A stretch of DNA of 63,245 nucleotides, the filler included, from Asterionella formosa (lineage: Eukaryota): the NCBI GenBank assembly GCA_002256025.1. It is 10 parts of 10 records of this genome, joined end to end, with 100 filler letters (N's around TTAATTAATTAA, not from the genome) between each part and the next. Parts side by side here need not be neighbours in the genome. Positions count along the whole stretch, not along the records: positions 19,056 to 25,286 come from NKIB01012774.1; 9 more parts are not named here. One strand, 5' to 3'. This document shows positions 9,170 through 34,801 of the stretch, piece after piece (position 1 is the first letter of the stretch; each line of letters begins with the position of its first letter). The position numbers and the translations under genes are program-made. The notes under the pieces were generated by a model, which saw nothing but the letters and a program-made list of their open reading frames with translations, made no database searches and was not told the DNA's origin.

Positions 9170-9530
9170 GAAGTACCGGTACCGGTATTCCGAAATCTAA
9201 CAAGAAGCAACAAAGAAAACAGGAATTGAGCAATTTACCAGCTATTTTGTTCGTAGTAGCAAACCGTCTTTTACCGCACCTGGCTTCCCCAGTACCAGGT
9301 CGTACCTGGTACCAGTACCATGCGCCCGTATCAGTCTCCTTCAAACCACGGTGCCCGTCATTGCAGCACCAGGTACTGTACCTGGTACGATCGTCCCAAC
9401 GAATCCTGATGTCGGCTGGCAGCTACTCCGAGTACCAGGTAACTGTATTGCGGATCAGTACCTGGTACCAGGTACCCGGGACTATTATGGTACCAGGTGC
9501 CCGACCAGCGGTGTACATGCCGGCATCCTA
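9170..9530. repeat. Cluster of TA-CCWGG-TA / TA-CCGG-TA units between the divergent amidase and thioesterase genes
   Basis: GTACCGGTACCGGTA, GTACCAGGT, GTACCTGGTACCAGTACC and GTACCTGGTACCAGGTACCCGGG are read directly. Confidence 0.85.
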
Positions 9531-9722
9531 CTATCTTGAGGTAGACACTTGATGTTCGCTCATCGTCACTCGATCCTTTGACGAACAAGCTGTAGATGAG
9601 CGAGTCCATGCAAAGTCGAGATTATGACAAGGGAACGCCGACTTGTCATTATTCTCAATTTTGTTTCCATCGGACTCTAATTTTCTTGTTGTGGCTTTGA
9701 AAAACTGAACGATGATAACAAA

Positions 9723-11954: not shown

Positions 11955-12602
11955 CCGTATACTTCATTGTCCTGGACCCCCCCTATGGTTGCTGGACCCC
12001 CCTGTACATTTTTCTCGAGGTGGAACCAAACACCCAATAATTTTCTTGTCATAGACAAAGTAACGTGCCATAATTCTTTTTGTCCTCGTAGGCACTAGTA
12101 TGTAATAATTTAGCTACCATTTTGCGATTCTTTTGTACATACAAAACACAAGAGACGACAGGTACTGGCTGTGAGCAGCTGGAGAATCCTTCATGATGTT
12201 GTCGCAACCTTGACCATGACGAAAATACCAATTATCTCCACGAAAATAGAGAACGACGCTTTGCTACTTGCTACCTGTATTAAGAATGACATCGAAAATA
12301 CAATCGTAAAAGAAGTAAAGTAATAACACTAATAATGACAACGAAAATTGAGATCGCCGATAACAACATGAAGTCGCGTTTTTCTTGCGAGGTGAAGAAC
12401 TCTCTCATTTTTCACGAGACGGAAATAATTGTCATATTAATACATCTTAGAAAAATGTGCGCTATCCTGTAGAACTAAAGAAATTTACTTAGGTCCATTA
12501 TAAGGGAAATCTCTTCATTGTCCTGGGCCCCCCTTAAGTAAAATCAGTCAAATTCAGTCACGGCAGTGTACATTGGGGGGTCCAGGACAATGAAGTATAC
12601 GG
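11955..12602. mobile_element. 648-bp MITE with perfect 28-bp TIRs and TA target-site duplication (Tc1/mariner-pogo type)
   Basis: TA|CCGTATACTTCATTGTCCTGGACCCCCC (11955-11982) and its exact reverse complement at 12575-12602|TA. Internal subterminal copies of the TIR motif are present. No transposase. Confidence 0.92.
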
Positions 12603-12604
12603 TA

Positions 12605-12704
12605 NNNNNNNNNNNNNNNNNNNNNNNNNNNNNNNNNNNNNNNNNNNNTTAATTAATTAANNNNNNNNNNNNNNNNNNNNNNNNNNNNNNNNNNNNNNNN
12701 NNNN
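12605..12704. other. Artificial contig linker
   Basis: N44-TTAATTAATTAA-N44. Confidence 0.98.
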
Positions 12705-13170
12705 AGGAAAACGCACGCGACATTTCAACATCAAATATTTTTATATTACTGATCTTATTGAAAGAAAGGAAGTACAAATCAAGTACTGTCCATCGGATGC
12801 AATGTTAGCAGACTACATGACGAAACCACTGATTGGAACGAAATTTATTCATTTTCGTCAGGAAATTATGAATTCAAAGTGAGCATCCGTGTCCAGCAGG
12901 AGTGTGTTGGAGAAAATATTTTAGGAAAGAAAATCCCGGTATAAATTACCTACTACATATTGAATCGAATGAATCAAGAAAGAATATGGTCCCAGAGAAT
13001 TCGAAAACAATCTACGCCAACAGTAAAAACCCATAATTCTATTAAAACTCTTAGGAACGATTACAATCGATCACGGAGACATCGTTGTTATATCTACAGC
13101 CTATTTGGTCCCTGACGTGTCCTTACAGGATACAAGAAAGCATATAGTGCTTCGGGACGCAATTTCAACA
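12705..13170 (+). mobile_element. 3' end of a Ty1/copia element: RNase H C-terminus (to 12882), PPT and 266-bp LTR (12905-13170)
   Basis: GKRTRHFNIKYFYITDLIERKEVQIKYCPSDAMLADYMTKPL*, then CAGCAGGAGTG, then TGTTG...CAACA. A close copy lies at 43611-44275 (minus strand). Confidence 0.93.
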
Positions 13171-14551
13171 ATAGCCATTCCCGCTCCACCTATCGTCTTG
13201 CCATTCGAGTACCAGTAGACTACCAGTGCCAGGTACTTCTTATTCATACCCTTGAATTTTAGGTCAAACTGACACCTAAAAAATGGTCGATACAAAATGT
13301 GCATACGAGAATGACTTCTACCTTGGGCGGGCCACACCCATCCATACCTAATACAGAAAGTACTGATAATACGTGCAGGGGATAAAAATTATTGTCAACA
13401 TGTATGAAATATGTTGCACACAATCAATTACATCTCACCATAACTTCATTTCAACCTCAACCAAATGATAGAATTTAGATGAAATGATTCATGAATATTT
13501 AATAGCTAGCTATTAGAAGTGTCAGTACTACTTGTTCTGTTGAATATTGTTGACGACATTCAAAAATGGCATGATTCTTTAGTTGGCTGCTTGAACCAAA
13601 TTGTCTCCCTTGTTCATTTCAATAACTACTAGTAGCAATTTATTAGCATCAAAATTTCAAAATCAGAGTTTCGATGTTAACATTGTAGTATTTAGTAGTA
13701 GATTTATCCATACTGCCAGCTAGTTTGAAAAAGCTTACACATTGTGAGTTTAGCTTCATGCACTCCTTGCATCGCTCATGAAGCCTCAATGATAGGCTTT
13801 TGGAGCGAATTCAATCATCTCTTAAAATTATCAAAGAATCATATTCTTTGTGTGAATTTTTTAACTAACTGATCAGCCTTATCAGCTGGCAACAAATGGT
13901 GGACCCTCAGTGACAAAATTCGCATGACATGGTGATAGAGAATCCAGAAGGCTTGATTCCATTCAACAATCAGAAAAGGCCTGAGTTTAAAACTTGAAGT
14001 CGGCAATTAATAGACGAACACATTCGAAGGGTTTTTCTAGCAATAAGAACAGGATGGTTTATCGATGATAGCTGGCAATCAATTGGGCTTGAATTGGCGA
14101 CGAAAACGACGAAGTATGGCTCTATACTAGGCATGGACAGTAAACAGAACAAATCAGACGACTACATAATCAAACGAACATTTTCATGGCTGTTATGATA
14201 TGATCTAGTCATCAAAATTCTATTTTAAAATCACATTCACTCATGCAACGAGCTGTTAGAATGGTGGTCGCATTACTAACATGCAACTGTCACAACATAT
14301 TACAACCCAACGTTCACTTACAATTTTGCTGCATACTACAAGTAGCTACTTTAGCAAAAATATTTTCCTGGTGTCCCAGACACTGCTAATTACCAAAGTG
14401 GTGCGTACCTGTAGCGAATGTACTTATATCCTCCTACTAAATTGTGTAGTCGACAGTCGGTTTTAAAATTGGTGCTTTGGTTGCACCGAGGTTCTAACTT
14501 CAATGTCTACTATAAGAGCTACTTCTTTGCAGAATGATTCATGTGTGGTTG

Positions 14552-15958
14552 TTAGTCGATCTTTTTCAACTCACTGGGTGACGCTATAACTCGCGGACCC
14601 CACCAACACCCCCGTAAGCGCTCCTTCATCAACTTAACACGTTCCTCGTGCGTTAGAGGACTACCATCCCGTTCGCCACGCAAATCAACAAACTTCCTGG
14701 CAAGAGCATCATAATCGCGGGCAACTGACATGCCAAAAACTTCAAAGGCGTGCGTTTTACGAAAGCAAGAAGCCCGGTTTTCGATATAGCTTTCCCATCG
14801 CTTCTCAACGTGACCAGGATGTTCCGTCCAATGAGCTCCAGGATATTGGTGATGAACCACGTGAGAATCTTCATTAAGTACATTAATAGTTCCATCCAAA
14901 ATCGTAATACTTTGAACATATTCATTTTCTGGATCATTGGGATCCACGAACGCATGCCAGCTCCAATTGACGGCTGCCAAGAGAATACCCGCTTCAAAAA
15001 AAGGAAAGGCAACATAGGCCAAGGAAAACGCAGGACTAACAACGAATCCACAAAGAACAATCCATCCAAGAAACCATGCACTTCCCACAATGACTTTGAA
15101 CACTACCTTCCAGTTTGCCTCTCGAGAAAACTGAGCCACAGTTGAGATGTTGGTGGCGTACAGAAAGTACCGTGGTAAGTATGCAACCCAATTGGCAAAG
15201 TTATCCCGAGGTTTGTCACTGGTTGTTATGACATCAAACTTGTTATTGTTGTATCGATGGTGATTTATGGAGTGGCCATATGCAAAGGTTGCAGGTAAGA
15301 CTCCAAAAAACATGCCGATCCACCAATTAAAGACATTTCGCAGAAAAAAGGACTGATTGTATTTCTTTGCATAGAGGCCAGCTCTGGAATGCCCTTCCTT
15401 GTGGCACAATGTGTATACATATGCAAAGTTCATAAAAAATGGACCAATGCGAAGGAGGTGGTAGGCGAAGACTAGCCAGAGGCACAAGCCATTTTGGTGC
15501 ACATGATAAGCACATGCGAAGAACAAGATTGGCACCAAGCCTCCATAGGCAAATATCGCATTCATCATGTAGGCGTCGTCGGGACGTTTAACAAATTGAG
15601 CATTGAAAGTTTGTGTAGTTCTTGTCAACCAGGGGATGAAAGAGGCAAATAGGAACCCGGAAAGTTCTTTGCCACTATCAACAAAACCTCCTTCAAACTT
15701 GCGATCGATTCCCTCCCAAATCATGCTTGCAAAGACGACAATACCAACAGGAGGACCAACAAAAAGGAGGAGAATGCAACCGCAAAAGAAGCTGACCCAT
15801 TCAGTAGCATTGCGGAAGTCGAGCATGGGGGTTTCATCTCCAACATGTGCTTCAGTAAAGGTAGTACCAGTAGCAGACTTGGCTGGCCCTGACTCAGCAC
15901 TCACGGCGTTTTCATCAGTTACAGCGGACTCCTGCTTCGCTGTAGTTGCGTTGCACAT
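14552..15958 (-). CDS. Membrane fatty-acid desaturase-superfamily protein, 468 aa, substrate unknown
   Basis: Three His boxes (HKEGH, HSINHH, HVVHH) and several hydrophobic segments. No cytochrome b5 HPGG domain. Confidence 0.85.
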   Translation of the reverse strand: MCNATTAKQESAVTDENAVSAESGPAKSATGTTFTEAHVGDETPMLDFRNATEWVSFFCGCILLLFVGPPVGIVVFASMIWEGIDRKFEGGFVDSGKELSGFLFASFIPWLTRTTQTFNAQFVKRPDDAYMMNAIFAYGGLVPILFFACAYHVHQNGLCLWLVFAYHLLRIGPFFMNFAYVYTLCHKEGHSRAGLYAKKYNQSFFLRNVFNWWIGMFFGVLPATFAYGHSINHHRYNNNKFDVITTSDKPRDNFANWVAYLPRYFLYATNISTVAQFSREANWKVVFKVIVGSAWFLGWIVLCGFVVSPAFSLAYVAFPFFEAGILLAAVNWSWHAFVDPNDPENEYVQSITILDGTINVLNEDSHVVHHQYPGAHWTEHPGHVEKRWESYIENRASCFRKTHAFEVFGMSVARDYDALARKFVDLRGERDGSPLTHEERVKLMKERLRGCWWGPRVIASPSELKKID

Positions 15959-16085
15959 GGCTCCCGTTTAGTAGTAGCTTGTATTGCAGCAGTTGCAGAA
16001 TCTAGGAAATGGCAACACAAGACGGGCTACTTTCCGATCTTGCTTGTTCGCTCAATTGTCTTGCGTTAAAAATAAGTTTAAATAT

Positions 16086-17260
16086 AGTACCTGGTACCTG
16101 GTACCGGTATGCATATATTCTTATGTGTGTACTGTACGAGATGAGAACAACATATGTAGCAAGAAATATGGCTGCATTCATACAAGAAACAAGACTATCG
16201 GTACCTGGTAATAGTATGAGCTCTAAGTACCAGACAGACTACGGGTATACGAGCCGTGACGTTCCGCCACGACCCAAACTTGAATCGTTACTTACACACC
16301 TGTACACTTTGCGGGCATTTTCAGAGTCGACATTTTGAGATACACATATATACCGGTATGAATACACAAAAGTACACCGGTAATTGAGCTTGCTCGCAGG
16401 CGCCAACAGTAAATGTGTGATATACATACTACCGGTATACTATGTAGCGGTATGGTACCTGGTACCAGGTGTACCGGGTACAGCACCTGGTATCCTGATA
16501 CCGGTTTATTGATACCGGTAGGTATAAGCTGGTTCTGGTATATATATACAGGTAGAGTACCTCGTACCTTGTACCTGGCACCTGGACCTGTTACAAGGTG
16601 AGGGAGTACCTGATACCCTGCTACTGTTACCTACCAGGTACCAGGAACCTCTCATCCTCGATCGTAGAAAAAAAGCAACATTTCAAGACCATGTAGGAGT
16701 ACCATGTACCGGTATATGTGTGTGCAAAGTATACCAAGTACAATACCCGGTACCTGGTACCTGGTACTCTACCATTATATATATACAAAGACACATCACA
16801 GAATGTCAGGAACCTTTAATGGGATCCCTAGCAAATCGACTATTTCGTAAATGATGGGGTAAATCCCCGATTCTATATAGCTCCTCATGCTCATGAAACA
16901 TGGTCAACGAACACAAGAATCCGAGCAAAGCATTCAATTCTACCTTGTATGTACTGTATGGGATGCCATGAAGTATTTTCCCTTCCAAGCAGCCATTCAT
17001 ATTTACTCCTACATGTCTAGTGTATACATGTATGTATAAACACCTATGTAGGCATTCATGTATTTTTACATGGGCTGAAAGGCAATGGATGACATGATCA
17101 TGACGGCATCATCATATAACTAGTGCTAATAATACCAGGGTGGGATAACCTTACAGTACTACCTGGCACCATGGTACTGGGGTATACTCCTAGCACATAT
17201 CTGGTACTGGTTCCAGCTATCAGGGGTATCAGGTACCATCAGGTAAAGCCCACCTGCTAC
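16086..17260. repeat. Dense TA-CCWGG-TA / TA-CCGG-TA cluster upstream of the desaturase-like gene
   Basis: For example GTACCTGGTACCTGGTACCGGTA at about 16087 and GGTACCTGGTACCAGGTGTACCGGGTA at about 16454. Confidence 0.85.
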
Positions 17261-18955
17261 CAGTAAAAAACTGCCATGACCCATTGAGTTAGGGTGTTTG
17301 TTTGACTTCTCCGAGCGACTAGGGGTAAATTCTATCGAATTTCGGACCCATCTGTTCGATAGTGTGAGAACAGCATTGATCAATCAAGCTGTTGTGTTGA
17401 AATTCTAATCGAACGATTACATCAGAAGATACAATGATGCATAATAAAACAGCTAAGAAGTGATTTCAATGGGTCATGGTAGTATATACTTTTTCTCGAT
17501 AAATGTATATAAATTTATTTACATTTTCGAGGACGGATTAGGTCAGCCATGTGTTAGCACACCTATATTTCATTATACCTTTTCACTAAAACATACATTT
17601 ATGATGCCGCACCTTCCACCACCATCATGATGTTCCTCCGACTTTCAAGTCCAATGGTCAGATCATTGCGATCCCATTGGCCACAGCATCACCTGCATCT
17701 TCAGCAGCATGATGCTGAGGATCAGGAAGCTGTGCTGCAGCAAGTGCATTTCGTGGAATCTGCTCCCCGCAATGATGGCAAGTGATGATGTACCTTTGAA
17801 GCAGCTGTTGCCTTGTATTTGGTACTGGTGCATCACCCTCACGTTTATACCAAATTACAAGAGTTCTGAGGTCAGTCACATTGTAAGAAGATTCAATCAG
17901 CTTTCCAGTTGCTCTCCCAGCATCAAACTTGTCCACTATTTTTTGAAATCGATTATTTGCTTTCTTTTCCTTTTCGTCTTGTGCAAGCTGTTGTATTTTC
18001 ATACTTGTTTTGCATGATCCCAAAGTTCTGGACCAAGTCGACAGTTACCAGCAGCAAAGTGTAGTCCAGCAGTAATCCTTTTGTGTTGATCTATTGCAGC
18101 CTGCGCTGTTTCCTTCCGTTTGCTTCCTTGCATGATCATCAGCATCTATTCCATTCCTTGCATCTTCACTCTTGAGAAAGGCAACAATTTTTTCTGTCAA
18201 TGACCCAGAATATCCGTCTGTCTGATTCAGCATTTCAGGAGTTACATTCGACTTGGTTGTGGTTCCAGCAAGTGAAGAATTGAGTTGAGTGCTTGTATTC
18301 TGTGTTTCCGCAGTGAGCAGAAGGTTATAGTTTAGAGGCCCCCATCCTCGTTCTGAGACTGCTTTTCTGTTTGTTCTTTTATTTGCAAAGCTTTTTCCCC
18401 AGGCAGTTGAAACAAGGGCTCAAGCAAGGGCAACAATGTCAGATTTCTCAATAGCAAAAGGCAAATCATGTTCAGTCTTTTCGGTAAGTAGGTCTCACTT
18501 TGCAATTGTCAGTTCCATTTTGAAACTTCCATTCTACTCCGACAAATCTCCGACTTGCCAGTAGGAGGTTCCGTAAGGGACACCTATACACACACTCCAT
18601 GGGGTCAAAGGGCTGTTGATATATTTGAGAAAGGAGCAATCGAATCTGGAGCCATGTCCATCTAGGATGAGGAAAGGGTTTATTCCATCACTGTGGTCAA
18701 ACAATTCCAAAAAATCCATTTGGGCCAACATTCTCACCAACATTTCTGCAGTAATGCTTCCTGATTCCGAACAACAACACAAAGTGGGCGCATGCTTCCC
18801 ATTTAACACACACACAGAGGTCCCTGGGCTGGGGATATCGCTTTCCTTTGCCAGTGTTTAGGTTGAAGTTGTCCTCATTGCCATGCCATTCCACAAACGG
18901 GTTAATCCCCTGTACCCAACAAAGTTCAAGCTCTTTGCCTTGGCAGCGAATATTA
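17260..18955 (-). mobile_element. DDE_1 (pogo/Fot1-like) DNA transposon, 3' half with terminal repeat; transposase pseudogene
   Basis: ESGSITAEML...PFLILDGHGSRF...VCIGVPYGTSYWQVGD, and C-terminal KRITAGLHFAAG and LRTLVIWYKREGD, with stops and frameshifts. The terminus TA|CCAGTAAAAAACTGCCATGACCCA matches 30558 at 21/24 positions. Confidence 0.85.
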
Positions 18956-19055
18956 NNNNNNNNNNNNNNNNNNNNNNNNNNNNNNNNNNNNNNNNNNNNT
19001 TAATTAATTAANNNNNNNNNNNNNNNNNNNNNNNNNNNNNNNNNNNNNNNNNNNN
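18956..19055. other. Artificial contig linker
   Basis: N44-TTAATTAATTAA-N44. Confidence 0.98.
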
Positions 19056-19918: not shown

Positions 19919-19992
19919 GTACTGCCCTGGAATGACAGGTCAAGATCTTTCTCGCGCCATTCGTTTTGCATATTATTCTGCTATATAAATTC
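19919..19992. repeat. Short dispersed repeat (probable TE end); inverted copy at 30481-30551
   Basis: GTACTGCCCTGGAATGACAGGTCAAGATCTTTCTCGCGC matches the reverse complement of 30513-30551 at 38/39 positions. Similarity continues through ATTATTCTGCTA. Confidence 0.8.
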
Positions 19993-19994
19993 TA

Positions 19995-21758
19995 AAGTGG
20001 AATCTCCCTATAAGATACACTCCCTATGGGATACACCCTCTATATAAGATACACTTTTCTCAATGAAGCAACCCCAAATTTGGAAATCCTTGTAAGGGAC
20101 CCTCTCTATACGATACACCCTCCTCCGTTAGATACACTTCTTCTAAAAAAATGGTTATTCTGACCTCCTTATAACATAAAAATGAGCACCGCACAGTCTG
20201 CACTCAGTTTGAGCCAGTAGTTTTTACCAGGTACATGGGACCTGGTACCGGGACCAGGTACCAGGTACCTATTTTGCATGCTTTGATCATCTCAATCACT
20301 GCTGAGGACTGACAATCTTCAGTACTACTACGTGCGTAGGCAGGTGATTGAAGCATAGTATGTAGTGATGTACCACATTGTCGATGATCTGGTGGTACCA
20401 TGGTACTATCACTTGTGACATTACTTGTTTATGACACCATTTATAATAATTTTTAGTTTTATACTTATCTGAAATGAACTTTGATCATTTCTTGTCCATT
20501 TGCTTCCATTCTTTCACTCATTTCAATCTCCAAGATTCAGACATCATCGCCATTGGGAACTGAAGGAACTAATGTGAAGGTCATGTTGGAAATGAAGTTA
20601 AAGCATAAAAGTGTTTCCATTGATACAAAAATAGCAGCAATAAAGCTGCTTGGTGAAGGGAATAGTGTTAGAGAAGTTGCTTTTAAACTTGCCGTAAGCA
20701 TTGGAACTGTTCAAAAAGCAAAGAAAAGGAAGGAGGACTTCCTGATGGAAGGTGAATTGATGTGATCAATGAAAATGGCTTGCCTTAATAGCGGTACGGA
20801 AATCAACACAGTATCATGGAGATGGTTTTGTAGTGCTTGCGCAAATGGATATCCAATTAGTGGACCCATCCTATGAAGCAAAGCTTTATTGATTGCCAAA
20901 GCATTCAAAGCAGAAAATAATTTTAAGGCATCTATTGGCTGGCTTGAAAAATGGAAGAAAAGACACAATGTCAAATCCTATGCTATTTGCGGAGAGTCTG
21001 GGAATGTAGACATGATTGATAAGGCTGAAAAATGGAAAGCTTTCTTGGCTAGTTTGTGTTATGAATATATCCCAGCCGACATTTTCAACATGGATGAGAC
21101 TGGATACTTTGATCATGCTCTCCCCAATTCAACACTCAATCAAGTATCAAAATCACGCAAAGGATGAAAATTAGCAAAGGATCGAGTTACAGTTGCTTTG
21201 GCATGCAGTACAGCTACGGAAAAGCTGCAGCCGCTGATAATTGGGAAATCCAAGAAGCCTCATTGTTTTCGAGAGATTGAATTGAGCCGCCTTGGAGTTC
21301 TTTGCAAGTCAAATAGCGAAAAATGGATGACAAATCATATTTTCAATGAGTATCTATTGGATTTGAATGTATAAATTGCTTCTCAGAAAAGGAAGATTCT
21401 TTTATTCTTAGATAACGCCCCTGTCCACATTGTTGATGAGGAAACAAGCTCAAGGCTAACACATGTTAAGGTTTAATTCTTCCCTCCAATTTTGACAAGT
21501 TTGTTGCAATGGTTGCCTGGGGAAGTGTTATGACTAAAACAATTCAAAAATGATTTAAAGCATGTGGGTTTGATAAAGTATGTGATGAAGAAAATGTATC
21601 AGTACCAGAGGAAACTGAAAATGGCTGATGGAAAGGCTTGAGGAAGTTGATGTTCTTTATGTAGTACAAGATTGTATTGGCGAATATGCAATCCCATGTG
21701 CCGAGACTTTAATTGCAAATTTGGTTGCTGAATATATTGATGAAGGGGATGAGGAGGA
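19995..21758 (+). mobile_element. pogo/Tigger (CENP-B-like) DNA transposon; transposase pseudogene at about 20583-21560
   Basis: Left end TA|AAGTGGAATCTCCCTATAAGATACAC with five GATACAC subterminal repeats. Protein motifs: HTH region, FKASIGWLEKWKKRH, IFNMDETG, KDRVTV, LIIGKSKKP, ILLFLDNAPVH. In-frame stops and an internal deletion. Confidence 0.9.
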
Positions 21759-24700
21759 TGACAGCCCTTATTATGCCAATAGAAGAATCGCTACACCGCA
21801 GCATGACTCGCCATCAATCAACTGCCAAAAGAGACCCAACCACATCCGCTTGGACCCAATCCGGCAGCAAGTTACAAATCGAATCGTCAATACAAAAATG
21901 AAAAAGGGGGGACCCGGAAACCCATCAGATGCTTTAATACCACAGCCTTACCATCACACGTACGTCAAACATTTAAATACCCAATGATAATGCACCCCTG
22001 GCACCAGGGAGCAAGGGCACATGAGAAATGCATAGTTCTCACACTCCCTTATTCGAGCAGGCAACTTGCGCCAAATCAAGAACACTACCAACGTTGCAAA
22101 GCTTTGCGATGACGCAGAAAAGCCGCCAACGGGAGCGGCTTGGTGAACATGTCAGCCACTTGATGCTGCGTATCGACATGCTCTATAAATATGAGCTTTC
22201 TTCGAACATAATCACGGAAATGATGGTACTTAATGTTGATGTGCTTGGTGCGGGGACGCATCTTGGGAGTGCGAGCTAATTCCAACGCACCGGAATTATC
22301 CTCAAATAGTGTGCAACGAACGGCAGGCACCGAAATCACATCGTGATCAAGTTTTCGCTTGACTTCTTCCAGCAATTGCATCAACGGAATGGTATCTTGC
22401 AATGACTGACTTAGACACACATACTCTGCCTCAGTGGTGGATAGAGCCACCTCTGTCTGCAATTTGGAAGCCCACAGCACCGGGCAGGAAGCGTACGTAA
22501 TTGCATACCCTGAGCGGGATTTGGCCGTCATTGTGTCACTAATGCTTGTCTCTTTGTTCCAATTTCCACAGAAATCCAAGTGATCATCGGGATGCAGGAG
22601 AATACCTTGGTGGGATGTGCCAATGAGGTAACGCACAATATTTCGGACTGCCACCGCGTGGGAGGCCTTCGGATTGGCAGAGAAGCGGGCGTACTGATGT
22701 AACGCATACGCAATATCCAGGCGAGTCGATTTCTCAAGGAAGTTCAGTTTTCCAATAACCGAGTGATAGGACCAATATTCCGAAAAATCATCTCCATCAA
22801 GATCCCTCTGCAATATCACAGTGGACGATGCTGGAACGCCCTTGGACTTGGTCTTGTTGGTAAAACCAATGTTGTCGGCAATGGAGGCAATCAGGTGTGG
22901 CTGTGTTAACGATATGATGGAGTCAACAGGAGAGGAAGTCACCTTAATACCCAGATAATCCGAGATGTCTCCTTTGTCGGTCAAGTTAAAAATCGACCGT
23001 ATGAGCTCGATGCATTCATCAATCAACTTTGACTCTGGGCTTATGAAAATTCCATCATCTACATAGACCATAAATATAGTCCTTCCTCTATAGTAGATAC
23101 ACTTGTCAGCATCACTCTGTACGAAACCAATACCCAGTAGCCCCTTAGTCAAATGCAAGGACCAAGTACGACCTGCCTGTCTCTGACCATAAATGTTCTT
23201 CAGAATCTTGAGACAATGACCATTCCGACCTCCTTCCGGTAGCTCAAACCCATGCGGTATTTCCATATATAAGTCGCACTCCACATTGGCCTGCGGGTAT
23301 GCAAGTGTAAAATCTATCTGCCTGGTACTCCATCCATGCATTAAGGACAGGACCAACATAAAGCGGATGGGTGGCCATGACAGGGTAGCCGCATAGGTCT
23401 CCCAGTAGTTCACCCCATGTTCCTGTTTCCCGCCATGTAGATTTGGCCTGGCCTTCCACTTGTACACCTCCCTTGAGGCTATCCGGCGTTTCCTCTTCAT
23501 AGCCCACACACATGGCAGAATTTCGGTTCTGAGTGGCATGGCTGACTTCGGAATCACCTTCCAATGTTGATTATTGTGATGCGCCATGACCTCGGCTTCC
23601 ATGGCGGCTATAAATTGCTTTCTGTCTGGCTCCCTTAGAGCCTGGTCGGCGCGTAATGTATAAGGATCGGATGATCTCGCTGCAAATGCAATTGGGTCTT
23701 CCATCATAACCTGCTGCAGGTGATACTCTTCATCCCCATCCACATTCTCGAGCACCGATGCCTTGCACAGCAGGCCCTGTTCAAAACTCTCTTGTAGCCG
23801 GTGTGACGGCTTGTGTCGTTGTGACCAACGCACTCCTGAAGAGGCGGACTCCCGTGACGCAAGGAGTGGGAGTCCCGCCCCGGTTTCCTCCAGCATCACC
23901 TCAGAAGTATCCAGGAGAGCCTCATGTGGGACCCCATCCTCATTCACGACTGGAACAACCAGGGGTGGCGGTCCCTGTGGGGAGAGGAGGAGAGGGAGCG
24001 GGAAAATCTCTTGACTTAAACTGTCCGCGACGACCGGCTTGGCGCGCCCTCGTGATCCTTTGGCTCCGGACGACTTCTCGGAGAAATGCGTGGCGGAGAG
24101 CCAGCCAATCTCATATACGTCCTCCTTGGTTCCCACGGTTTCGAAGAGGTCGTCGAACGCAACATGAAATTGCGGTGACACCAGCCCCGTCGATATGTTT
24201 AACACTAGAGCAACGGACGGTGCATGCTGTGGGGACTGCCCTAGATACAAGCCTACCCTTGCTCTCTTAAACCACTTAGGTATGTGTTTCCCGGCAGCCA
24301 GCTCGTTAGACAGAACGTACGTAGGGCACCCAAAAGGGCGAAATGACCCCAACTTAGGGGACACGTCAGTCCGGGAAAACACGCTTGCGGCGGACCTTCC
24401 GTCCACACGACGCGGAGCGCTAATAAGTGCATCATTAGCCGTACGCAGTGCATATGGCCACAAGCAATTCGACATGACTCGTGGCCATCGGGCAGTGGCG
24501 TGCAATAACGCAGTACGCGCCAAGTCCTGTACCGGTAAGTCCCTACCGGTAATTCGTTTCTCTGCCACACCATTTTGAAAATGTGCGTTGACACCTCAAT
24601 ACGAAATTCTCTGGCGCTGCTCGGCAATGTCCTGCAAGAACAGCGTGTCCGCAAATCGACCGTTGTCAGCATGGTAGTGAATCACCTTCACGCCGTGTGA

Positions 24701-25286
24701 CTCGAAGTATCGCTCGAAGGCCCTTTTTGCCTTCACGGTGTCATCCGAGGTCAGCGATCGCTGCAAGTGGACAAATGAAAGGCGGCTGAAATGGTCGACA
24801 AAGATTGTTGCGGCCATATATCGCTGAGTGGTGGGAACTCCTTTGAGTTGCCCAATCAGCCCTGGTGTAGGGGACTGCATCTGGTCCACTGAGACGCACT
24901 GTCCAGGGAAAGTCGCCGTTCCGCCTCCCACCTTGCTTGGTGGTGCTTTTGACCTCCACGCCCTTCGAGTCGCCTTTCCATAGTACATGCAGGCAGCGCA
25001 TTTGGGAATGCGGGCCTGCAAGAGTTTCTTGGGAATAAATCCTGTAGCAGCCATGCTCCGCAGTTGGCTGAAAGGCAGATGGCCAAGCCGGTAGTGGAGA
25101 CGAAGCAATTCCGTGGTAGGCGTCAGGGTATCCTGATCTTCAGTCTCAGTTGGCTTGGCGGATGCGTCATGAAACACTGTTTCAAGGTGAGACTCTGGAA
25201 TGTTTGTTCCACTGGCATCTCCCTTAACGGACGGATCATGTGAATTCTCACTCCTACCACCCTTCTCTGCCGGGCGCGGCGGGGGG
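21759..25286 (-). mobile_element. Ty1/copia (CoDi-like) retrotransposon: integrase-RT-RNase H (25177-22085), PPT and putative 3' LTR (22041-21759); defective, 5' end off-contig
   Basis: LHYRLGH...CAAC zinc motif, VSVDQ, HADNGRF, QNGVAEKR, RQIDFTLAYPQ, IYGQRQAGR, VYVDDG, SKLQTEVALSTTEAEY, RTKHI, ADMFTKPL. In-frame TGA at 24596 and loss of the YVDAD motif. PPT AAGGGAGTG is followed by TGAGA...TGTCA. The LTR outer end is less certain. Confidence 0.93.
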
Positions 25287-25386
25287 NNNNNNNNNNNNNN
25301 NNNNNNNNNNNNNNNNNNNNNNNNNNNNNNTTAATTAATTAANNNNNNNNNNNNNNNNNNNNNNNNNNNNNNNNNNNNNNNNNNNN
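25287..25386. other. Artificial contig linker
   Basis: N44-TTAATTAATTAA-N44. Confidence 0.98.
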
Positions 25387-25897
25387 CAGAAATCATGTAC
25401 TGAACCACCAAATCATGCGTGTCCAAAGGGGAATGATGGGACACTTGAGACTTGGCAGCCATGGGAGTGTGGGGGGTCTGTTTCCGTTGTGCAGAAGCCG
25501 TCTGTGTGACGAAGCTTTGGCCTTGACCTCCATTGAGTGCATCGAAGCATTCCGAGTTCCCATTGCTTGTCGATGGAACTGCTGCAGCTGACGGTTCGGA
25601 GCACTGTTCGAAATTGGCAAAGTTAGCGGTATTCGGCTTGACAGTTTTCTTTTTCTTCTTGACTGGATTCCCAAATTCATCCACCTTGACCTTCTTCTCC
25701 CTTATGAGATTTCCCTCGTTGTCGTACTGCTTGATTCGTGTGCTCGCCTTTTTGGACTTGAGCTTTTTGGCTTTCTTCGTCACTGGTGCAAGCAATGGCT
25801 CCAGTGAATTGGCGTCAGCAGAACCCATCACTTGACCTGTTGCAGTGTTCATTGTTGCAGTACCAGTTGTCGGCCACTGAGATGGCTCAAACGACAT
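25387..25897 (-). CDS. Hypothetical protein, Lys-rich low-complexity N-terminal part, truncated by contig end
   Basis: ATG-initiated frame open to the contig edge, with gene-like GC/CpG content. No recognisable domain. Confidence 0.55.
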
Positions 25898-27361
25898 TCT
25901 TCCCTATGAGTAAATGAAGAGCGGCAGATGAGCAGTCAACAGACCCAGGAATCCCAAGCAAAGGAATGGCGTCAGTACGTATTAGGATATATTTAGTGTC
26001 TGTATTGTACGTGTAGAGCAAAAAATATGTCGCTTTACAATCGTTGTTTTGTCATTCTTCGTATTTTATACATATTTCATAGGTGATATAATTGATTTCT
26101 ATTTTTCTTAAATACATTCCTCGATGGCTCAGGCTTCTCATTCAAATGTCTGATTCGACATATTTACGGTTCTTGTATAAATCTAAATATTTATACCGGT
26201 ACTGTTACATGCACGCCTCCTTTAATTACGTAGTCTGTTAGTAATTACAACACAAGTGCCTGAACTTATGATCATCCTAAGCAAACATGGGTAATGATTG
26301 AAAATAGTGACCCCGGAACAGTGCCTACAATAGTAATACATAGGGATCCGAAGCATTTTGAAAGTTCTGCCCTCAATATGTTCTACATGTAGGTCGGATA
26401 GTAACGATGACGATTCCGACGAAGCTAGTGCCAGGAGAACTGGGACGACGATGATATTGAAGATGGCTGTATCTATATATTTACACAAGGGAATGAATGT
26501 CATTATTGGCGACTCAAGCCGAGTATTTCATATTCACATATGGGGGTGGCTGGCTGAAGGAAACATTTCCTTGCAATGATTTAGGTTTGTTGACTTCTTG
26601 GTGTTTGTACTTTGGTTTTAAAATCGTTTTTTAATGGTGTTACCGGTATCCTTTTTACAAAATTTATGTTTTTCCGAATTTCTGAAATTCCATACCGGTA
26701 GGTAATGCACCATATTCCCATGAAGAGACCAGTTACTGCTTACCAACCAAGGTACTTTTTGTAAGAGGGATGTCCCTACCGGTAGTAGTTATCGTGATGT
26801 CCACCTGGTACTCAATGACTCCATGTTGCATTTATGTCATAATCTATACCGGTACCGGTAGACTCGTATTCTGAGGAATACATACACAAGAAGTCTTTTA
26901 TCATTCTTTGGATGCGACATCCATGACTTTACAGAAGTGACAAAAAGTGTATTGTTCTGTTTTATGTGTCTATATAAATGGAGACTGGTTCGCTCACAGG
27001 TGCAGATACATATTTAATTAGGCCATTCTTTTTTATGATGATTCCGAATTTGTGGTATCATTTCCGGGTTGTGTAAAAATGACAATTGTTTGGTATCAAA
27101 ACACGGTATCAGCAACTGTAACGTGATGGTATTAATTCAGTATCATTGATTTAAAAATGATACGCAAATTATTGGTGTGATGCAAACGAACGGAAAGAGG
27201 CACGACCTGCACAAAGAAATTTTACTGTGGTTTGGCTCGCCATAAAAGGAGGACTGATATTAATTTCAAATATTTGATACTTATCCCATTACCGGTCATC
27301 AAAGCCGACATACAAATCCCTAAAGGTCATCAAAATACGCCAAGTTGTTTTCGACTATTAC

Positions 27362-29650
27362 CTAATTCGATTTAAGTTTTTCAGCCGGTACGTTTTCCAA
27401 GTTCTTGGCTTCTCCGCTCCAATACCTATCGACAATAAAGTAAGTTCCAAAGAGTATCAAAAAGATAGGAATGAGTCCAAAGTACCACTTATCCCAGCTT
27501 TCCCGTCCGGCAATCATGGGGGCAATCATCAATGAGATGATGCTCATCAGCTTGATTAGAATGTTCAAAGCAGGACCAGAGGTATCCTTGAAAGGATCGC
27601 CAACGGTGTCTCCCACAACGCATGCTTTGTGGATATCGGTTCCTTTTCCGCCTTTGGCACCTTCAATTTCAATGTACTTCTTAGCATTGTCCCAAGCACC
27701 GCCGGCATTTGCCATCATGATGGCTAACATCATTCCAGAGGTAATGGCGCCACCCAACATTCCAGTCAGACAACGTGGTCCAACCAAGAATCCAACAGCA
27801 AGTGGGGACAGAATGGCATACAATCCGGGAAGAATCATCTCCTCCACGGAGGAATGAGTTGAAATTGCAATGCACTTATCTGAATCTGCTTCTGCTGTTC
27901 CTTCTCGGAGTCCAGGAATCTCGGCAAACTGACGACGTACTTCAACAATAATGGCACCTGCTGCCTTCTGCACAGAAAGCATAGTCAAGGCTGAAAACAA
28001 AAACGGAAGCATGGCTCCAATTAATGCTCCACTCAAGACTACAGGATCTCCAATATCTACCACATCGATATTCGCCTTGGCCTTAAAGGCTGCCAAGAGT
28101 GACAGAGCTGTCAAGACAGCCGAAGCAATGGCAAATCCCTTTCCAGTTGCGGCAGTTGTGTTTCCAAGAGCATCGAGAGCATCCATAGTGTCACGAACAC
28201 GTCCTTCCATTTTGGCCATTTCAGCAATGCCACCCGCATTGTCTGCAATGGGCCCATATGCGTCTGTTGCCAGAGTCACGCCCAATGTTGACAACATGCC
28301 CACGGCTGACATGGCAATGCCATATTCTCCAGCGAGAGCGTTGCATGCAAGAATGGTGGCGACAATAATCAATACTGGAAAAACACAAGAGATCATTCCA
28401 ATTCCAAGGCCTTGAATGATGACAGTGGCAGGTCCAGTGACAGCGGCGTCGGTAATTGACTGTACTGGATAGAAGGAGTAGGAAGTGAAGTATTCTGTGA
28501 CTTGCCCAATGAGAACACCAGCCAATAGTCCCAAGAGGATACATCCAAAGATATTCCACCCTTCTTGTTCTCTTCCAGGGAAAAGTTGAGAACATAATAC
28601 TTTTGAAACAAGAACCACCACGAAGGACGCAATCAAAATTCCCTTGTTGAGTGCTGCCAATAGGTCTTTTTGCGACGCTCCATCCTTTGTTCCCACAGCA
28701 AAGAATCCAATGACACTGGCCAGAATTCCTCCTCCACTAATCCATATTGGTAGCATTATCAATGCAACATCTCCATTGGCCAATGCCATGGCAGCAATGA
28801 TGCTTCCAACGTATGATTCAAACAAATCGGCCCCCATCCCAGCCACATCTCCAACATTGTCACCGACCAAATCAGCAATGACAGCAGGATTTCTGACATC
28901 ATCTTCTGGAATGTCCATTTCCACTTTTCCAACCAAATCAGCTCCCACATCCGCCGCCTTGGTAAAGATACCCCCCGCAACACGTGCAAAGAGGGCAATG
29001 GACGATGCTCCAAACCCAAATCCTGCCAAGGCATCGGTGGCCAGCAGCAGTTTGTTTACGTTATCATGATGATCGTCATTGCCATATCCCTGCACCAAAA
29101 TCGCAAACACAATGGAAAGTCCCGTCAATCCAATTCCTACTACTGTAAATCCCATGACAGCACCTCCAGTAAATGCCACCCGCAAGGCGGATGCCAACCC
29201 ATGTTGATCTGCAGCTTGTGTTGTCTTGACATTGGTGTCTGTAGCGACTTGCATCCCTCCCCAGCCAGCTCCAGCAGATAGAACGGCTCCTACCAAGAAG
29301 CTGCCCCCATATCGAATCCCATCCTTCCATGTTGCGCTTGTGCCGCCGTACAAGAGTGCCAGACTTGGGACCACCATGGCCACAAAGTATGCCAAGTAGG
29401 TGTATTCAGTAACTAGGAATGCTCGACTTCCTGATTGAATACGTTGGGAGATGTCATTCATGACCTCGTTGCCTTTTGGGACAGATGATAGTCGAAACTT
29501 CAAGAAGAAAACCATGAGGATCCCAACAAGTCCAGCGCCCACTCCAAAGGAAACATTTGCCATGGGATCCTCCACATTGCAGGGGAAGCCAGAGAAGCCA
29601 GAGGCAAGGAAACAGGGAGCATTGACGGCCAAGGTTGCTGTTGTTGCCAT
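27362..29650 (-). CDS. Membrane-integral cation-translocating pyrophosphatase (mPPase), K+-dependent type, 762 aa
   Basis: GGIFTKAADVGADLVGKVE, VGDNVGD, EYFTS, DAYGPIADNAGGIAEM, GNTTAA, GGAWDNAKKYIE and GDTVGDPFKDTSGP. The first ATG is at 29650; the ORF track start is a GTG. Confidence 0.97.
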   Translation of the reverse strand: MATTATLAVNAPCFLASGFSGFPCNVEDPMANVSFGVGAGLVGILMVFFLKFRLSSVPKGNEVMNDISQRIQSGSRAFLVTEYTYLAYFVAMVVPSLALLYGGTSATWKDGIRYGGSFLVGAVLSAGAGWGGMQVATDTNVKTTQAADQHGLASALRVAFTGGAVMGFTVVGIGLTGLSIVFAILVQGYGNDDHHDNVNKLLLATDALAGFGFGASSIALFARVAGGIFTKAADVGADLVGKVEMDIPEDDVRNPAVIADLVGDNVGDVAGMGADLFESYVGSIIAAMALANGDVALIMLPIWISGGGILASVIGFFAVGTKDGASQKDLLAALNKGILIASFVVVLVSKVLCSQLFPGREQEGWNIFGCILLGLLAGVLIGQVTEYFTSYSFYPVQSITDAAVTGPATVIIQGLGIGMISCVFPVLIIVATILACNALAGEYGIAMSAVGMLSTLGVTLATDAYGPIADNAGGIAEMAKMEGRVRDTMDALDALGNTTAATGKGFAIASAVLTALSLLAAFKAKANIDVVDIGDPVVLSGALIGAMLPFLFSALTMLSVQKAAGAIIVEVRRQFAEIPGLREGTAEADSDKCIAISTHSSVEEMILPGLYAILSPLAVGFLVGPRCLTGMLGGAITSGMMLAIMMANAGGAWDNAKKYIEIEGAKGGKGTDIHKACVVGDTVGDPFKDTSGPALNILIKLMSIISLMIAPMIAGRESWDKWYFGLIPIFLILFGTYFIVDRYWSGEAKNLENVPAEKLKSN

Positions 29651-29869
29651 GATGATGGATGCAGCTAGTGTCACGGCACGCTGTGATTATAATGGTTCAA
29701 GGCCAAGGCGAACAGTAATGATGTGTTTACTTTTTTGTGACTACCGGCATGAATCTCCTTTTGAATATCATCACAAAATGATCATCGTGGACGACGACGA
29801 AGAAACGCTGGATGTAACATGTATATTCATATATGAATAAAGTATTGCATAAAATTGTACAGTCATGAT

Positions 29870-30557
29870 ATACCGGCATATTGTAGACCAGTCCCTGGTC
29901 CCTGGTACCAGTTACCAGTACAGCGAGCAGACGTACAGCCATACCTATGACGTATGTACTTGCTTTCCATATATTGTGTGCAGACCCATCTGTGATGGTA
30001 CCAGGTACCTGGTACCTGGTACCAGGTACCAGGTACAGTCATCATCTCTACAGATTTCTTCTTGCCTGTGGAAGGTCCGGCAATCGAGAGATTTAGCTTA
30101 ATATTTTCCCAAGGACTAAACGTGTTTTACCTGACCTTCTTCCCTTCTTCTGAATACCGGTACGAGGTACCGGTATACCGGAAGTATCACCGCTACTTAA
30201 CCACACAGGCAGGAGGGCACTCCGGAGGGTAACAGGGTACTTGGTACCAGGTACCAGACCTGGTTACCGGGACCTGATTCCGCACCACTACAGATGTAGG
30301 AGTAGCCGGTAGGCAGAAGAATACCGGTATTGCAGTGATCGGAAGTACGACCCCCATATGTACGTACCGGTATGGTTAATGCAGACTGTGTCTGTTAGGC
30401 TGTTGATGTCGATGAGTGTCCGAAGGCTAGATGTAGTCTGAGGAATGTCTCCGGGTACAAGATATACCGGTAGAGCGACAGGATTTATTTACCGGTAGCA
30501 GAATAATGAGCAGCGCGAGAAAGATCTTGACCGGTCATTCCAGGGCAGTACCTGGTA
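29870..30557. repeat. TA-CCWGG-TA array cluster upstream of the mPPase; pure (TACCWGG)5-TA run at 29999-30035
   Basis: TA CCAGG TA CCTGG TA CCTGG TA CCAGG TA CCAGG TA, plus many TACCGGTA units. Confidence 0.9.
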
Positions 30558-31621
30558 CCAGTAAAAAGCTGCTGTGACCCACTAAAAAAATTTGGAACCG
30601 CTGTGACCCACTGAACAGGAGAAAAACACGGTTTGACCCTCCCAAATGCAGATTTGTTAATTTTAAAACTTCGATCCCAATCTTGAGCATATACACTTTA
30701 AGGCTATGTCATTAGATATAAGTTTATAGCAATTGGTTTCTCCTAAAATATTGGTTGAAAAGTGCAATCGACGAAAATATTGCCAGAACACGGATTACCC
30801 CATGTTTTGAGGATTCATTATTATATGATATTTGCAGCTGTATACAAAAATGTCGCCTTCGATTTATTTGTTGTCTGATTCCTGTCATATCTTTATCCCT
30901 GTCACTTGATAGTGCCTAAGTAACTTGATCACTATATACTGGTGCGCCAGCCAAGTAGACCCAAATACCATCATCACCCATACACTGGAAAGGAAATGTG
31001 TACCTGGTACATACCAGTATACAGTTTTTAGCTCATAATATGCATCCAAACTATGGCAAAAAATCTACTGTGCCTTTGGGCAAGGCAGCTCAGTCTATTA
31101 GCAGCACAAACAAAGCCAGAATGATTGAACATTGCCTATTGAACATTTCTACAAATATGGAAGTGTTGAAAGCGAACAATAATGGAAAACTACCATATGG
31201 CTCAATTTCTCGTGCTGTGCACGATGTACAAGAACTTGTCCCATGGGTGACTACACAGAAAGTGAAATACTTTCTAAGGAAAATGAGATCATCTGGTGGC
31301 ACCAGTACCAGCATGGACAAACAGCCTGAGGAGGATGTGCATGAAGAATCACAAGAAAGCGAAATATCTATGCTGACAATGGAAGGTGTAGAAAATTACA
31401 GCTATAGCAGAAAAAATCATCATCATTCTTCCATTACTACTATGATTATGTCGGCAAGTTCTAGTTTGCCTCCTGCCAGGCAGCACTACTACTGCATCAA
31501 CTGAAAGCAGCAGCATCATTTCTGCCACTATAACCCTGCCCTATGGTGGTCGTCCAAAGGGAACAACTGCAGTAGCCAGCTCCATCATGGCAGAAAAAGT
31601 GAAAGAATGTATTTCCAATTC
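30558..31621 (+). mobile_element. 5' end of a DDE_1-type transposon (same family as 17260-18955): terminal repeat plus transposase N-terminus
   Basis: Terminus TA|CCAGTAAAAAGCTGCTGTGACCCA with an internal GCTGTGACCCACT repeat. ORF LKANNNGKLPYGSISRAV...VPWVT is followed by GGRPKGTT. A homologous fragment lies at 61490-61713. Confidence 0.7.
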
Positions 31622-31721
31622 NNNNNNNNNNNNNNNNNNNNNNNNNNNNNNNNNNNNNNNNNNNNTTAATTAATTAANNNNNNNNNNNNNNNNNNNNNNN
31701 NNNNNNNNNNNNNNNNNNNNN
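31622..31721. other. Artificial contig linker
   Basis: N44-TTAATTAATTAA-N44. Confidence 0.98.
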
Positions 31722-32820: not shown

Positions 32821-34801
32821 AAGTTGAACACAGCCTAGGTTCATCAAGCGTCATAAGATGCTTGGTTACCTCCTGGACATGCAAGACATGTGGCTTTGAA
32901 AACCAGGTCATAGATTTGTGGCAAGCAACATCTCGGTCACCTCCATATTGCTCGAGCGGACTGAACAATTAAGGTTGGCGCTTAGTACGTAGCAATACGT
33001 AGGAGTACGGTACAGCAGTGACTAGTCGTTATATCACGCAGACATTGGCGATAGAGTGGAAGTGTCTGTTAGTTAGCGATAGCGAAAGCAAGAAGTGAGT
33101 GCTCGATCTTGCTCACTCTTTTTACAAATAATTCTTTTCATACATCTTTACCTAAGTTAGTCACTATGTCGGATTCCACGTAGCGATTATGATTTAGTAT
33201 ACCTGGTACCGGTAGAGTAGTGTACTGGAGTACGAGGGTTTCCCGCATGCGGTTACCGTTAAGTACATTTTTTATCTGGGTGTAGCCAGAGCTGGTTATT
33301 ATTTTATCTGGGTTCCCTGATGGGGAAGACATTTGAGAAACTGAACAAAATTGGTATTTTTGAGGTATGAAGCAATGATAAATAGATGAATACAGATGAT
33401 TGTATTTATATACAAATATATTAACATATAATTGTACTCATTAAGGCCATAAACACATGTGTAGTATATATTATCTTGTAGACTATTATTGTGGTTTCTC
33501 CATGCACATCTAAGCCACAAAATAGGCCACTTTTCTTTTCGAAACTTCATCTACTCCAGTACATAGGAGTTTTGATTAAATGTGGTACTTCACATGAATT
33601 AATGCCACTCTTCCCATAAATAAGCAGGTTACTTTTAACGATTTCATGTGAAGTTTTACCGCGTTCATCATGTAAGGTTTCTTTCACAATGAACTTAGAA
33701 CTCAAGACTGCATCAGTTGCTTGATGTTTCAAATAATTCATTTCAAAATCATGGATGATTTGTCACTTACGACATGCATCTTCATTTATGAAATAGTAAG
33801 GATATTTGTAGTGTCTTATTTCAGGCATGCTGGAAAATCAACAGTTTCTGGTTGCTGTGCTCTTCACGTATCATGTCATGTGCACTTATTGTAGTGAACA
33901 ATATTAATCTTCCTGTTTTCATGTGATTTTTCACAATCATATAGTGATTTCCAAGACGGAACTACCGGTAGTTGATATTATAACTAATTACTCTAAAAGT
34001 TCAAGATACACTTTTTAGAGGGTAAGCAATTCATTGCGAAAGACAACTTCAATTTAGGAAAAGTACAAATATTTATGGTGTGTGTCGATGTCCCAACAAG
34101 CCTCCTCTATTGGTTTATTGATGGGTTAACACAGGGACCAATTTTTACCTTATTGGAATTTTTTGACCCCCTATTGGAGGATCATTTTGACAACATTTTC
34201 GAAGATTGATGTTTACCAATCATGTCATTTCAGCTTATTGGCCATTGACGTTTTCGATTTCTTGGATTAGGGTTGCGATAAATTTAGCTGATTTTTACCT
34301 CCAATAGCTAAGGTCCGATTTTCCCCTTCTTAGGCCTAAAAGCCTTCTCGGAGTTCAAAAAACGGTTATCATAGGGGATAGCAATAACTATTCTTGGGTT
34401 TAAGTGTTCCATATTAGAATCGAACTTCCAATGATTTGGCTAATTGACTTTTTTTACATAGTATGAAAATACTGTGCCACTTAGTGTAAAATACCCTTGA
34501 TCCTATATGCATGATACTTTTTATTTGCAGAAGATACTGATGTAGCTGATTGGTCCTCTTTATCGCCATTTGTTGAAAAAACCATTTCTTGCTCTTGCCT
34601 TGTGGGTCATTAAGTGTGCAAGAGTCTGGTGGGGATGGGGAGGGATTATCATCAGTGGTAAGGGGAGTGGGCTTAGAAAATGCACTGGATGATGGTTGAA
34701 TATTATTTTTCGACTGTTTAAGTGCTCTTTTCGATGAATTAGCAAGTTCTTGTTTTTGATTCAGTGCTATAGAAAGGAAGGCGAAAACTGAAATAAGTAT
34801 C

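Follow-up and report, generated by a model that had tools for sequence, protein, structure and literature searches.

Short TA-bounded insertions in a copia retrotransposon and in gene-flanking DNA of Asterionella formosa, probably excision footprints of TA-targeting transposons

A copia retrotransposon copy with two extra hexamers in its integrase

We analysed a 63,245-nucleotide stretch of DNA from the diatom Asterionella formosa (GenBank assembly GCA_002256025.1), called the window below, in which a Ty1/copia-type retrotransposon copy carries the word TACCGGTA (TA-CCGG-TA) twice inside its integrase. The window consists of ten contigs of 6,222 to 6,252 bases each, split by nine N44-TTAATTAATTAA-N44 linkers; the copia copy and its two hexamers lie on contig 4 (19056-25286), and the comparison with other sequencing runs was made on contig 5 (25387-31621). 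Judged by sequence, the genes of the window are diatom-like, and the best named relatives of the H+-pyrophosphatase gene at 27365-29686 come from Fragilaria crotonensis (74%), Cylindrotheca, Nitzschia, and Seminavis, the nearest other sequence standing at 85%. Contig 5 was found in 20 public runs, which belong to 14 studies and mostly bear the label freshwater metagenome.

For the protein comparison, 120 homologues were retrieved with the integrase part as query. For the DNA comparison, metagenome contigs were scanned with a full-length family member, which yielded contig L001, carrier of two family copies. The features of the element that bear on the argument are as follows.

21775-25286, minus strand: Ty1/copia-type retrotransposon copy (integrase, RVT_2, RNase H), broken off where the contig ends at 25286; the likeness to L001 stops at about 21775
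24544-24551, copia integrase: first TACCGGTA unit, TA-CCGG-TA, extra residues T-G; lacking in L001 DNA and in 119 of 120 homologues
24530-24537, copia integrase: second TACCGGTA unit, TA-CCGG-TA, extra residues P-V; lacking in L001 DNA
24981-24985, minus strand: third small insertion, TA-C-TA, reading ATG TAC TAT GGA where L001 has ATG TAT GGA (MYYG versus MYG)

The polyprotein contains the Pfam families gag_pre-integrs and RVT_2 in the domain order of Ty1/copia, and its integrase has the QNG.AE.RIRDLQ motif, as in the Ty1/copia elements of diatoms, of which hundreds of relatives were found in diatom-like sources, including one from Fragilaria crotonensis at 57% identity. It differs from these in its three small insertions, in a 21-base gap, in truncation at both visible ends, and in a stop codon: positions 24596-24598 read TGA in frame, against TGT (Cys) in L001 and C in 116 homologues, and this stop in place of Cys marks the window copy, on its reading frame, as dead. 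The 21-base gap lies near 22579 in the RNase H region, where the window lacks seven codons found in both L001 copies. Comparison of the window with itself found no pair of long terminal repeats for the element, whose 5' part lies beyond the contig end, and no unit-sized indels among the few repeat pairs in the window.

Comparison of the hexamers with homologous proteins and DNA

The two TACCGGTA words stand at 24530-24537 and 24544-24551, inside cctgTACCGGTAagtcccTACCGGTAattcg (24530-24551), and the minus strand reads GAG AAA CGA ATT ACC GGT AGG GAC TTA CCG GTA CAG GAC TTG, that is, EKRITGRDLPVQDL. This places both hexamers, and the reading RI-TG-RDL-PV-QDL, where the original prediction had put them. 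That prediction also took RIRDLQ to be the usual form of the motif, and the homologues agree: an uninterrupted x-x-I/V-R-D/E-L-Q-D/E was found in 116 of 120 by pattern and in three more by eye (P0070, P0111, and P0112), so that 119 have a RIRDLQ-type motif without interruption and only P0044 lacks a recognisable one. None of the 120 copia proteins has an extra TG or PV at the hexamer places; the strings DLPVQ in P0104 and P0118 were ruled out as a match to the PV insertion, being elsewhere in those proteins. The nearest relative, P0003 (96% identity), reads QNGVAEKRIRDLQDLARTALLHATARWPRVMSNCLWPYAL / QNGVAEKRIRDLQDLART... at the motif, with no insertions. Among the 30 members listed for the two nearest copia protein clusters, the only further small insertion is an extra Y in P0150.

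At the DNA level, L001 matches window positions 21775-25268 with 95.8% identity (3,330 of 3,476 aligned pairs) and seven gaps. At the hexamer sites it reads ...CGAAT TA GGGACT TA CAGGAC..., the window sequence minus CCGGTA twice. Besides these 6 bases at each hexamer site, the window has TAC more than L001 at the TA-C-TA site and GCA more at an exact CAG duplication, while L001 has 21 bases more than the window at one gap, 6 bases more that make a TACCGGTA just past the stop codon, and 1 base more in a C run. Four of the seven indels between the two copies are thus of the class TA-(C or CCGG)-TA. The unit past the stop codon is present in both L001 copies and in L002, decayed in L016 (TACAGGTG), and absent from the window copy.

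Because the 95.8% identical L001 copy and the homologous proteins lack them, the alignments show both hexamers as secondary insertions at TA with the TA duplicated. An alignment of the kind that had been proposed as a check has come out in favour of the original prediction, with neither L001 nor any of the 120 homologues encoding RITGRDLPVQD, and a further event of this kind, polymorphic between strains at 30194 (below), points the same way. The copia comparison serves as a clean internal control, in which units are seen to be written into existing DNA at TA.

Abundance, chaining, and position of the units

The same word is abundant throughout the window, together with a seven-base-step relative, TACCWGGTA (hereafter the W unit). 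We counted 34 copies of TACCGGTA, versus 0.28 expected, a number reached or exceeded in 0 of 100 shuffles, and 42 copies of TACCWGGTA, versus 0.34 expected; the two are the window's top non-N 8-mers and 9-mers. Of all the inner strings that occur between two TAs, only CCWGG (42 versus 0.65 expected), CCGG (34 versus 0.61) and, more weakly, CCSGG (5 versus 0.22) are strongly enriched; TACCATGGTA and TACCGCGGTA occur once and not at all in the window. The 76 perfect units fall into 57 chains (45 of one unit, 8 of two, 2 of three, one of four, and one of five) on 9 of the 10 contigs, with neighbours often joined through a shared TA. Copies with one mismatch number 96, versus about 19 expected, and units and one-mismatch copies together cover 1,373 of 62,345 bases.

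The chains are clustered: 28 of 48 neighbour distances between them are at most 100 bases, where the null model has a mean of 6.2 and a maximum of 16 in 2,000 draws. This, together with the TA-C-TA insertion as a third small insertion in the copia copy, upholds the earlier suggestion, made from two hits 14 bases apart, that the rate is high or locally clustered. None of the 57 chains lies in a host-gene open reading frame (ORF) supported by Pfam, although such ORFs make up 17.4% of the bases (binomial P = 2e-5), and the only chains in any Pfam-supported ORF are the two in copia. The clusters adjoin genes, mostly on the upstream side, the genes being those for a desaturase, a pyrophosphatase, a kinase, a cobW-like protein, a CREG-like protein, and an E2 protein. 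Five of the clusters are listed here.

29999-30557: 13 perfect units, including the chain TACCAGGTACCTGGTACCTGGTACCAGGTACCAGGTA; upstream of the H+-pyrophosphatase gene
16088-16766: 12 units; upstream of a fatty-acid desaturase gene (14555-15967, minus strand)
60901-61166: 9 units; upstream of a 2-oxoacid dehydrogenase E2 gene (59066-60364, minus strand)
9056-9474: 8 units; upstream of a thioesterase-like ORF (9681-10619, plus strand)
26194-26860: 7 TACCGGTA units in 6 chains; downstream of the H+-pyrophosphatase gene, and present also in runs X2 and X3, described below

Such positions raise the question of whether the palindromes are cis-regulatory promoter sites kept by selection, their excess stemming from function. 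Most clusters lie within about 1 kb upstream of the genes just named, and the units are palindromic, like the sites of dimeric factors; yet this explanation, which we consider improbable, does not say how 6 or 7 bases come to be cleanly inserted at a TA, be it within a dead retrotransposon gene or 3' of a gene (26194-26860). A regulatory role, suggested by position only, is compatible with an origin of the units as transposon footprints, since scars could be co-opted.

Taking the flanks of the 57 chains together, 54% have G as the base next to the TA on its outer side (C at the opposite flank), versus 27% at all TAs, an excess that could reflect a target preference for GTAC or decayed neighbouring units.

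Comparison with plain heptamer arrays

A second explanation holds that the units are a 6/7-base microsatellite family, spread by slippage and gene conversion, with the copia hexamers as chance seeds. We scanned genome_contigs with a three-unit chain and found 84 prokaryote stretches (L017-L100), against about 0.1 expected by chance on our own estimate, in which this 23-base string, TACCWGGTACCWGGTACCWGGTA, occurs within plain heptamer arrays. We rejected these (TACCWGG)n stretches as relatives, because they are ordinary heptamer microsatellites, and use them for contrast only. Apart from the shared string, they differ from the diatom units in being homogeneous, with the middle letter the same in 194 of 214 neighbouring pairs, in having few scattered single units, and in containing only 4 copies of TACCGGTA in 288 kb. 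The stretches come from bacterial genomes and MAGs; in some Gemmatimonadaceae, Acidimicrobiia, Chitinophaga, and Deltaproteobacteria bins, several such arrays occur per genome, and arrays of a heptamer that differs by one letter often come next.

Besides these arrays, slippage can be seen at work once on contig 5, where runs X2 and X3 are one copy short in a TCCCTGG-TCCCTGG doublet. Against slippage as the origin of the units, 45 of the 57 chains are single units in unrelated sequence, and a first unit inside a conserved codon run, as in the integrase, cannot arise in this way. Neighbouring W units in the diatom agree in their middle letter in 7 pairs and disagree in 5 (5 of 12, versus 20 of 214 prokaryote pairs; Fisher p = 0.005), 6-base and 7-base units are mixed in 5 chains, all units are bounded by TA, and X2 has a new single unit at 30194. 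Head-to-tail growth from one array is not what the chains show, and we regard this explanation as very unlikely.

Units on contig 5 in independent sequencing runs

To place the units in independent data, we aligned to contig 5 the contigs of four runs, X1 (probably the source) and X2, X3, and X8 (three other studies). X2 covers 25387-27104, 27125-29977, and 30007-30413, X3 covers 25387-29977, and X3 and X8 have gaps at about 30200-30400. Between 25387 and 30413, no difference inside a unit was listed for X2, X3, or X8, which shows that the contig 5 units are real in independent data.

These results bear on the suspicion that the units are spurious, produced when the source library was sequenced or assembled. 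The source is a fragmented assembly with contigs of about 6 kb, and the cover from a second library is of contig 5, while the copia sites are on contig 4. Three other studies nevertheless carry contig 5, with no unit listed as altered between 25387 and 30413, a unit is found in three copia-family copies of other assemblies (twice in L001 and once in L002), decayed copies are in excess, and the units avoid host ORFs, so that an artefact is hardly credible. The 96 one-mismatch copies, together with the contig 5 units in other studies, make the units both real and old.

The unique part of contig 5 has five indels between strains, two of them of a single base. At 30194-30195 the window and X1 have a plain TA, where X2 has TA-CCTGG-TA: an insertion of TACCTGG behind 30193 turns CACCGC-TA-CTTAACC into CACCGC-TA-CCTGG-TA-CTTAACC. 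Here a W unit has been gained at a TA that is otherwise plain, by an event of the same type as in copia, and the units are in this sense polymorphic between strains. TA thus stands on both sides of the insertion at three copia sites, compared with L001, and at the polymorphic W unit, whereas for the 76 units it does so by definition. In a second place, X2 and X3 lack 7 bases inside TCCCTGG-TCCCTGG, a decayed doublet; because both copies of the doublet carry one common mutation, this loss is a case of slippage. In a third, the 18 bases TATCCTTTTTACAAAATT (26647-26664) are missing in X3 and X8. They come straight after TACCGG, are bounded by TA, and adjoin the unit at 26641, and the segment may be filler or a larger scar at one TA.

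A block of about 60 bases, GTACTGCCCTGGAATGAC.GGTCAAGATCTTTCTCGCGC, is common to 19919-19983 and 30496-30551. It is part of a repeat, the other copies of which diverge past 30551 (loose ends of run contigs), and within the window it breaks off at a TA bearing a W unit.

TA-flanked elements resident in the window

The window contains TA-flanked elements with CCN tips, and a decayed transposase gene, as follows.

11953-12604: complete 652-base TA-flanked element with a perfect 30-base terminal inverted repeat, TA followed by CCGTATACTTCATTGTCCTGGACCCCCC... (CCGTATAC...); termini CCG...CGG
17258-17481: TA-flanked short element of 224 bases, TA followed by CCAGTAAAAAACTGCCATGACCCATTGA on the left, and ...TCAATGGGTCATGG (GGGTCATGG) followed by TA on the right; both ends start CCA
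30556-31621, plus strand: high-copy repeat, TA followed by CCAGTAAAAAGCTGCTGTGACCC, starting right behind a W unit and carrying an ORF
20478-21374, plus strand: decayed pogo/Tigger-type transposase (CENP-B_N, HTH_Tnp_Tc5, DDE_1) in three frames

The 652-base element is the only clean one of its kind, the remaining TA-flanked inverted-repeat matches in the window being scar chains that pair with one another. The outer 14 bases of the short element are absent from its right arm, and a 26-base block directly after the TA, beginning CCAGTAAAAA, is found at 17258 and 30556 (22 of 26 alike). A third repeat family, TA followed by CCTCAAAAAAA..., occurs at 3023 and 5886. The depth of the repeat at 30556 is about 500 to 1000 times that of the neighbouring gene. 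Its ORF of 154 residues (31040-31501) has no Pfam family, and a search of 1.84 billion representatives gave 51 matches at E up to 0.001, mostly short fragments or unannotated; of 10 of these matches that were scanned, 8 had no Pfam family and 2 had weak unrelated matches. A scan of viral_contigs with one chain and both element ends gave no matches, nor did a scan of genome_contigs with the CCA end.

Pogo/Tigger-type elements target TA. The decayed copy at 20478-21374 is that of a DDE/D transposase of the Tc1/mariner superfamily, and a possible left end of the remnant, TA followed by CCTATTTTGC, adjoins the W unit at 20259-20267. Two element starts in all adjoin the TA of a unit, that at 30556 with the unit 30549-30557 and the putative one at 20268 with the unit 20259-20267. 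The inner letters of the units fit the CCG...CGG tips of the 652-base element and the CCA and CCT starts of three repeat families, a fit that comes from few elements in 62 kb only.

The elements also bear on the idea of a dedicated process that writes CCGG or CCWGG at TA, without a full transposon, through a domesticated transposase or nuclease with a fixed filler or through movement of the core itself. In its favour, the scars, with 76 perfect units in 62 kb, show extreme uniformity and density, comparison of the contig 5 runs turned up no occupied allele, the units cluster beside genes, and CC:GG half-sites are common to CCGG and CCWGG. We know of no enzyme that writes a fixed CCGG or CCWGG filler at TA, though, and elements flanked by TA, the tips of which predict such scars, lie in the same contigs. 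Moreover, two elements adjoin the TA of a unit (30556 and 20268), as expected from re-insertion, and the minor classes (CCSGG and single C) match trimmed element tips. A dedicated writing process seems to us an outside chance, on a par with selection for promoter function.

Excision footprints as the probable origin

We consider it likely that the hexamers are excision footprints of a TA-targeting cut-and-paste element of the Tc1/mariner/pogo type, and that the same process has acted genome-wide. In such a course of events, an element, or a small non-autonomous derivative of one, would have inserted at TA in the dead copia copy, duplicating the TA. On excision, the transposase would cleave the non-transferred strand a few letters in from the element's end and so leave 3' overhangs of element letters on the flanks, the staggered cut retaining the first two or three letters of the element (CC, CCG, CCA, or CCT) on each side. 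End joining would then seal the break as TA, tip letters, and TA. CCG tips would pair through CG and give TA-CCGG-TA, with a one-letter overlap giving the minor class TACC(G/C)GGTA; CCA or CCT tips would overlap on one mismatched letter, settled as A or T, and give TA-CCWGG-TA; deeper trimming would give TA-C-TA. Re-insertion into either TA of an older scar would produce mixed chains with random middle letters, and scars would build up in gene-flanking DNA, to more than one per kilobase, across the whole diatom genome. What we infer is the origin of the scars from the resident elements, how long the stagger is, and the route of joining. Avoidance of host-gene ORFs, ascribed to selection, counts in favour of an origin by excision, and the clusters may stem from open chromatin, from local hopping, or from an attraction to old scars.

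Scars of this general form are known from Tc1/mariner elements. Their excision leaves 3' overhangs of 2 to 4 element letters, end joining of which gives the canonical Sleeping Beauty footprint TAC(A/T)GTA, as well as shorter scars of 1 or 2 letters (PMC6943129). The diatom units resemble this account in consisting of TA, terminal element letters, and TA, with a middle A or T where like overhangs meet. In contrast to it, their inner letters are CCGG or CCWGG rather than CAG or CTG, they are fixed in the germ line instead of being assay products, they exceed one per kilobase in gene-flanking DNA, they are chained through shared TAs, and both their source element and the stagger are putative. In rice Mariner/Stowaway elements, scars of a TA-targeting superfamily are likewise legible by genome comparison, and excision is a source of small indels; there, 8 of 94 excisions were "perfect", with a clean duplicated target, and most had deletions or filler (PMC4423477). 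In the diatom window, by contrast, two stereotyped products dominate.

Several points weigh against an origin by excision. Since excisions in the rice superfamily are mostly untidy, with 8 clean in 94, scars as uniform as the diatom units need a special repair habit. The W-type join calls for an overlap of one mismatched letter without flanking pairs and is in this respect less natural than the Sleeping Beauty join, and the chains and tight clusters, with scars as little as 14 bases apart, need a strong regional preference or an attraction to old scars. At the copia stop-codon unit the order of events is ambiguous. The contig 5 run comparison shows no allele with an element occupying a unit site, and the joints there stem from repeats. 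The window has no intact transposase and no autonomous CCN-tip element, and the ORF of the high-copy CCA element matched no Pfam family. The original prediction had already proposed Tc1/mariner-type scars, and this has gained from the resident CCN-tip elements and the pogo remnant; no site in all three states (empty, occupied, and scarred) and no intact transposase was seen in the material compared.

The type of event is known, while its density, uniformity, chaining, and gene-adjacent position in a diatom are unusual. A literature search by sequence string and by word, with subscription journals outside its scope, found no published description of the diatom phenomenon: the string search for TACCGGTA, TACCWGGTA, and the chains returned only unrelated primers and barcodes, and the word search returned general footprint papers, with nothing on diatoms. 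If an origin by excision is right, the two odd words most frequent in this genome amount to a mutational signature, left by thousands of hit-and-run visits of small DNA transposons, concentrated beside genes, and excisions, which are normally invisible, become countable. It would explain in-frame insertions of residues (T-G, P-V, and the extra Y) in proteins of this lineage, would caution annotators against taking such indels and 6/7-base arrays for assembly errors, and would raise the question of whether palindromic scars alter promoter function or the targets of DNA methylation.

A bolder version, which we put forward as speculation and think rather unlikely, is that in this diatom lineage the excisions are repaired so uniformly that the scars form a sequence family of their own, amounting to about 2% of the DNA examined and, counting decayed units, to more than 3 units per kilobase outside ORFs. 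Old scars or the open chromatin around them would then be preferred landing pads, palindrome arrays close to promoters would grow by hit-and-run and be partly co-opted as regulatory DNA, and the main lasting effect of DNA transposons on the genome would be the writing of scars, more than the elements as such. Arrays that grow by hit-and-run would also add CpG- and CHG-type sites.

Other features of the window

The nine linkers lie at 6253-6352, 12605-12704, 18956-19055, 25287-25386, 31622-31721, 37951-38050, 44276-44375, 50601-50700, and 56924-57023, and their TTAATTAATTAA spacer has stops in all six frames. The ten contigs that they separate are arranged by length. ORFs that seem to reach a linker, for example 25331-25903, are part of another contig. 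A tandem duplication of about 450 bases (34759-35206 and 35212-35667) has 80% identity and many indels, none of them unit-sized. A 470-base repeat is found on two contigs, at 12705-13173 and 43608-44077, with 97.4% identity and in opposite orientation.

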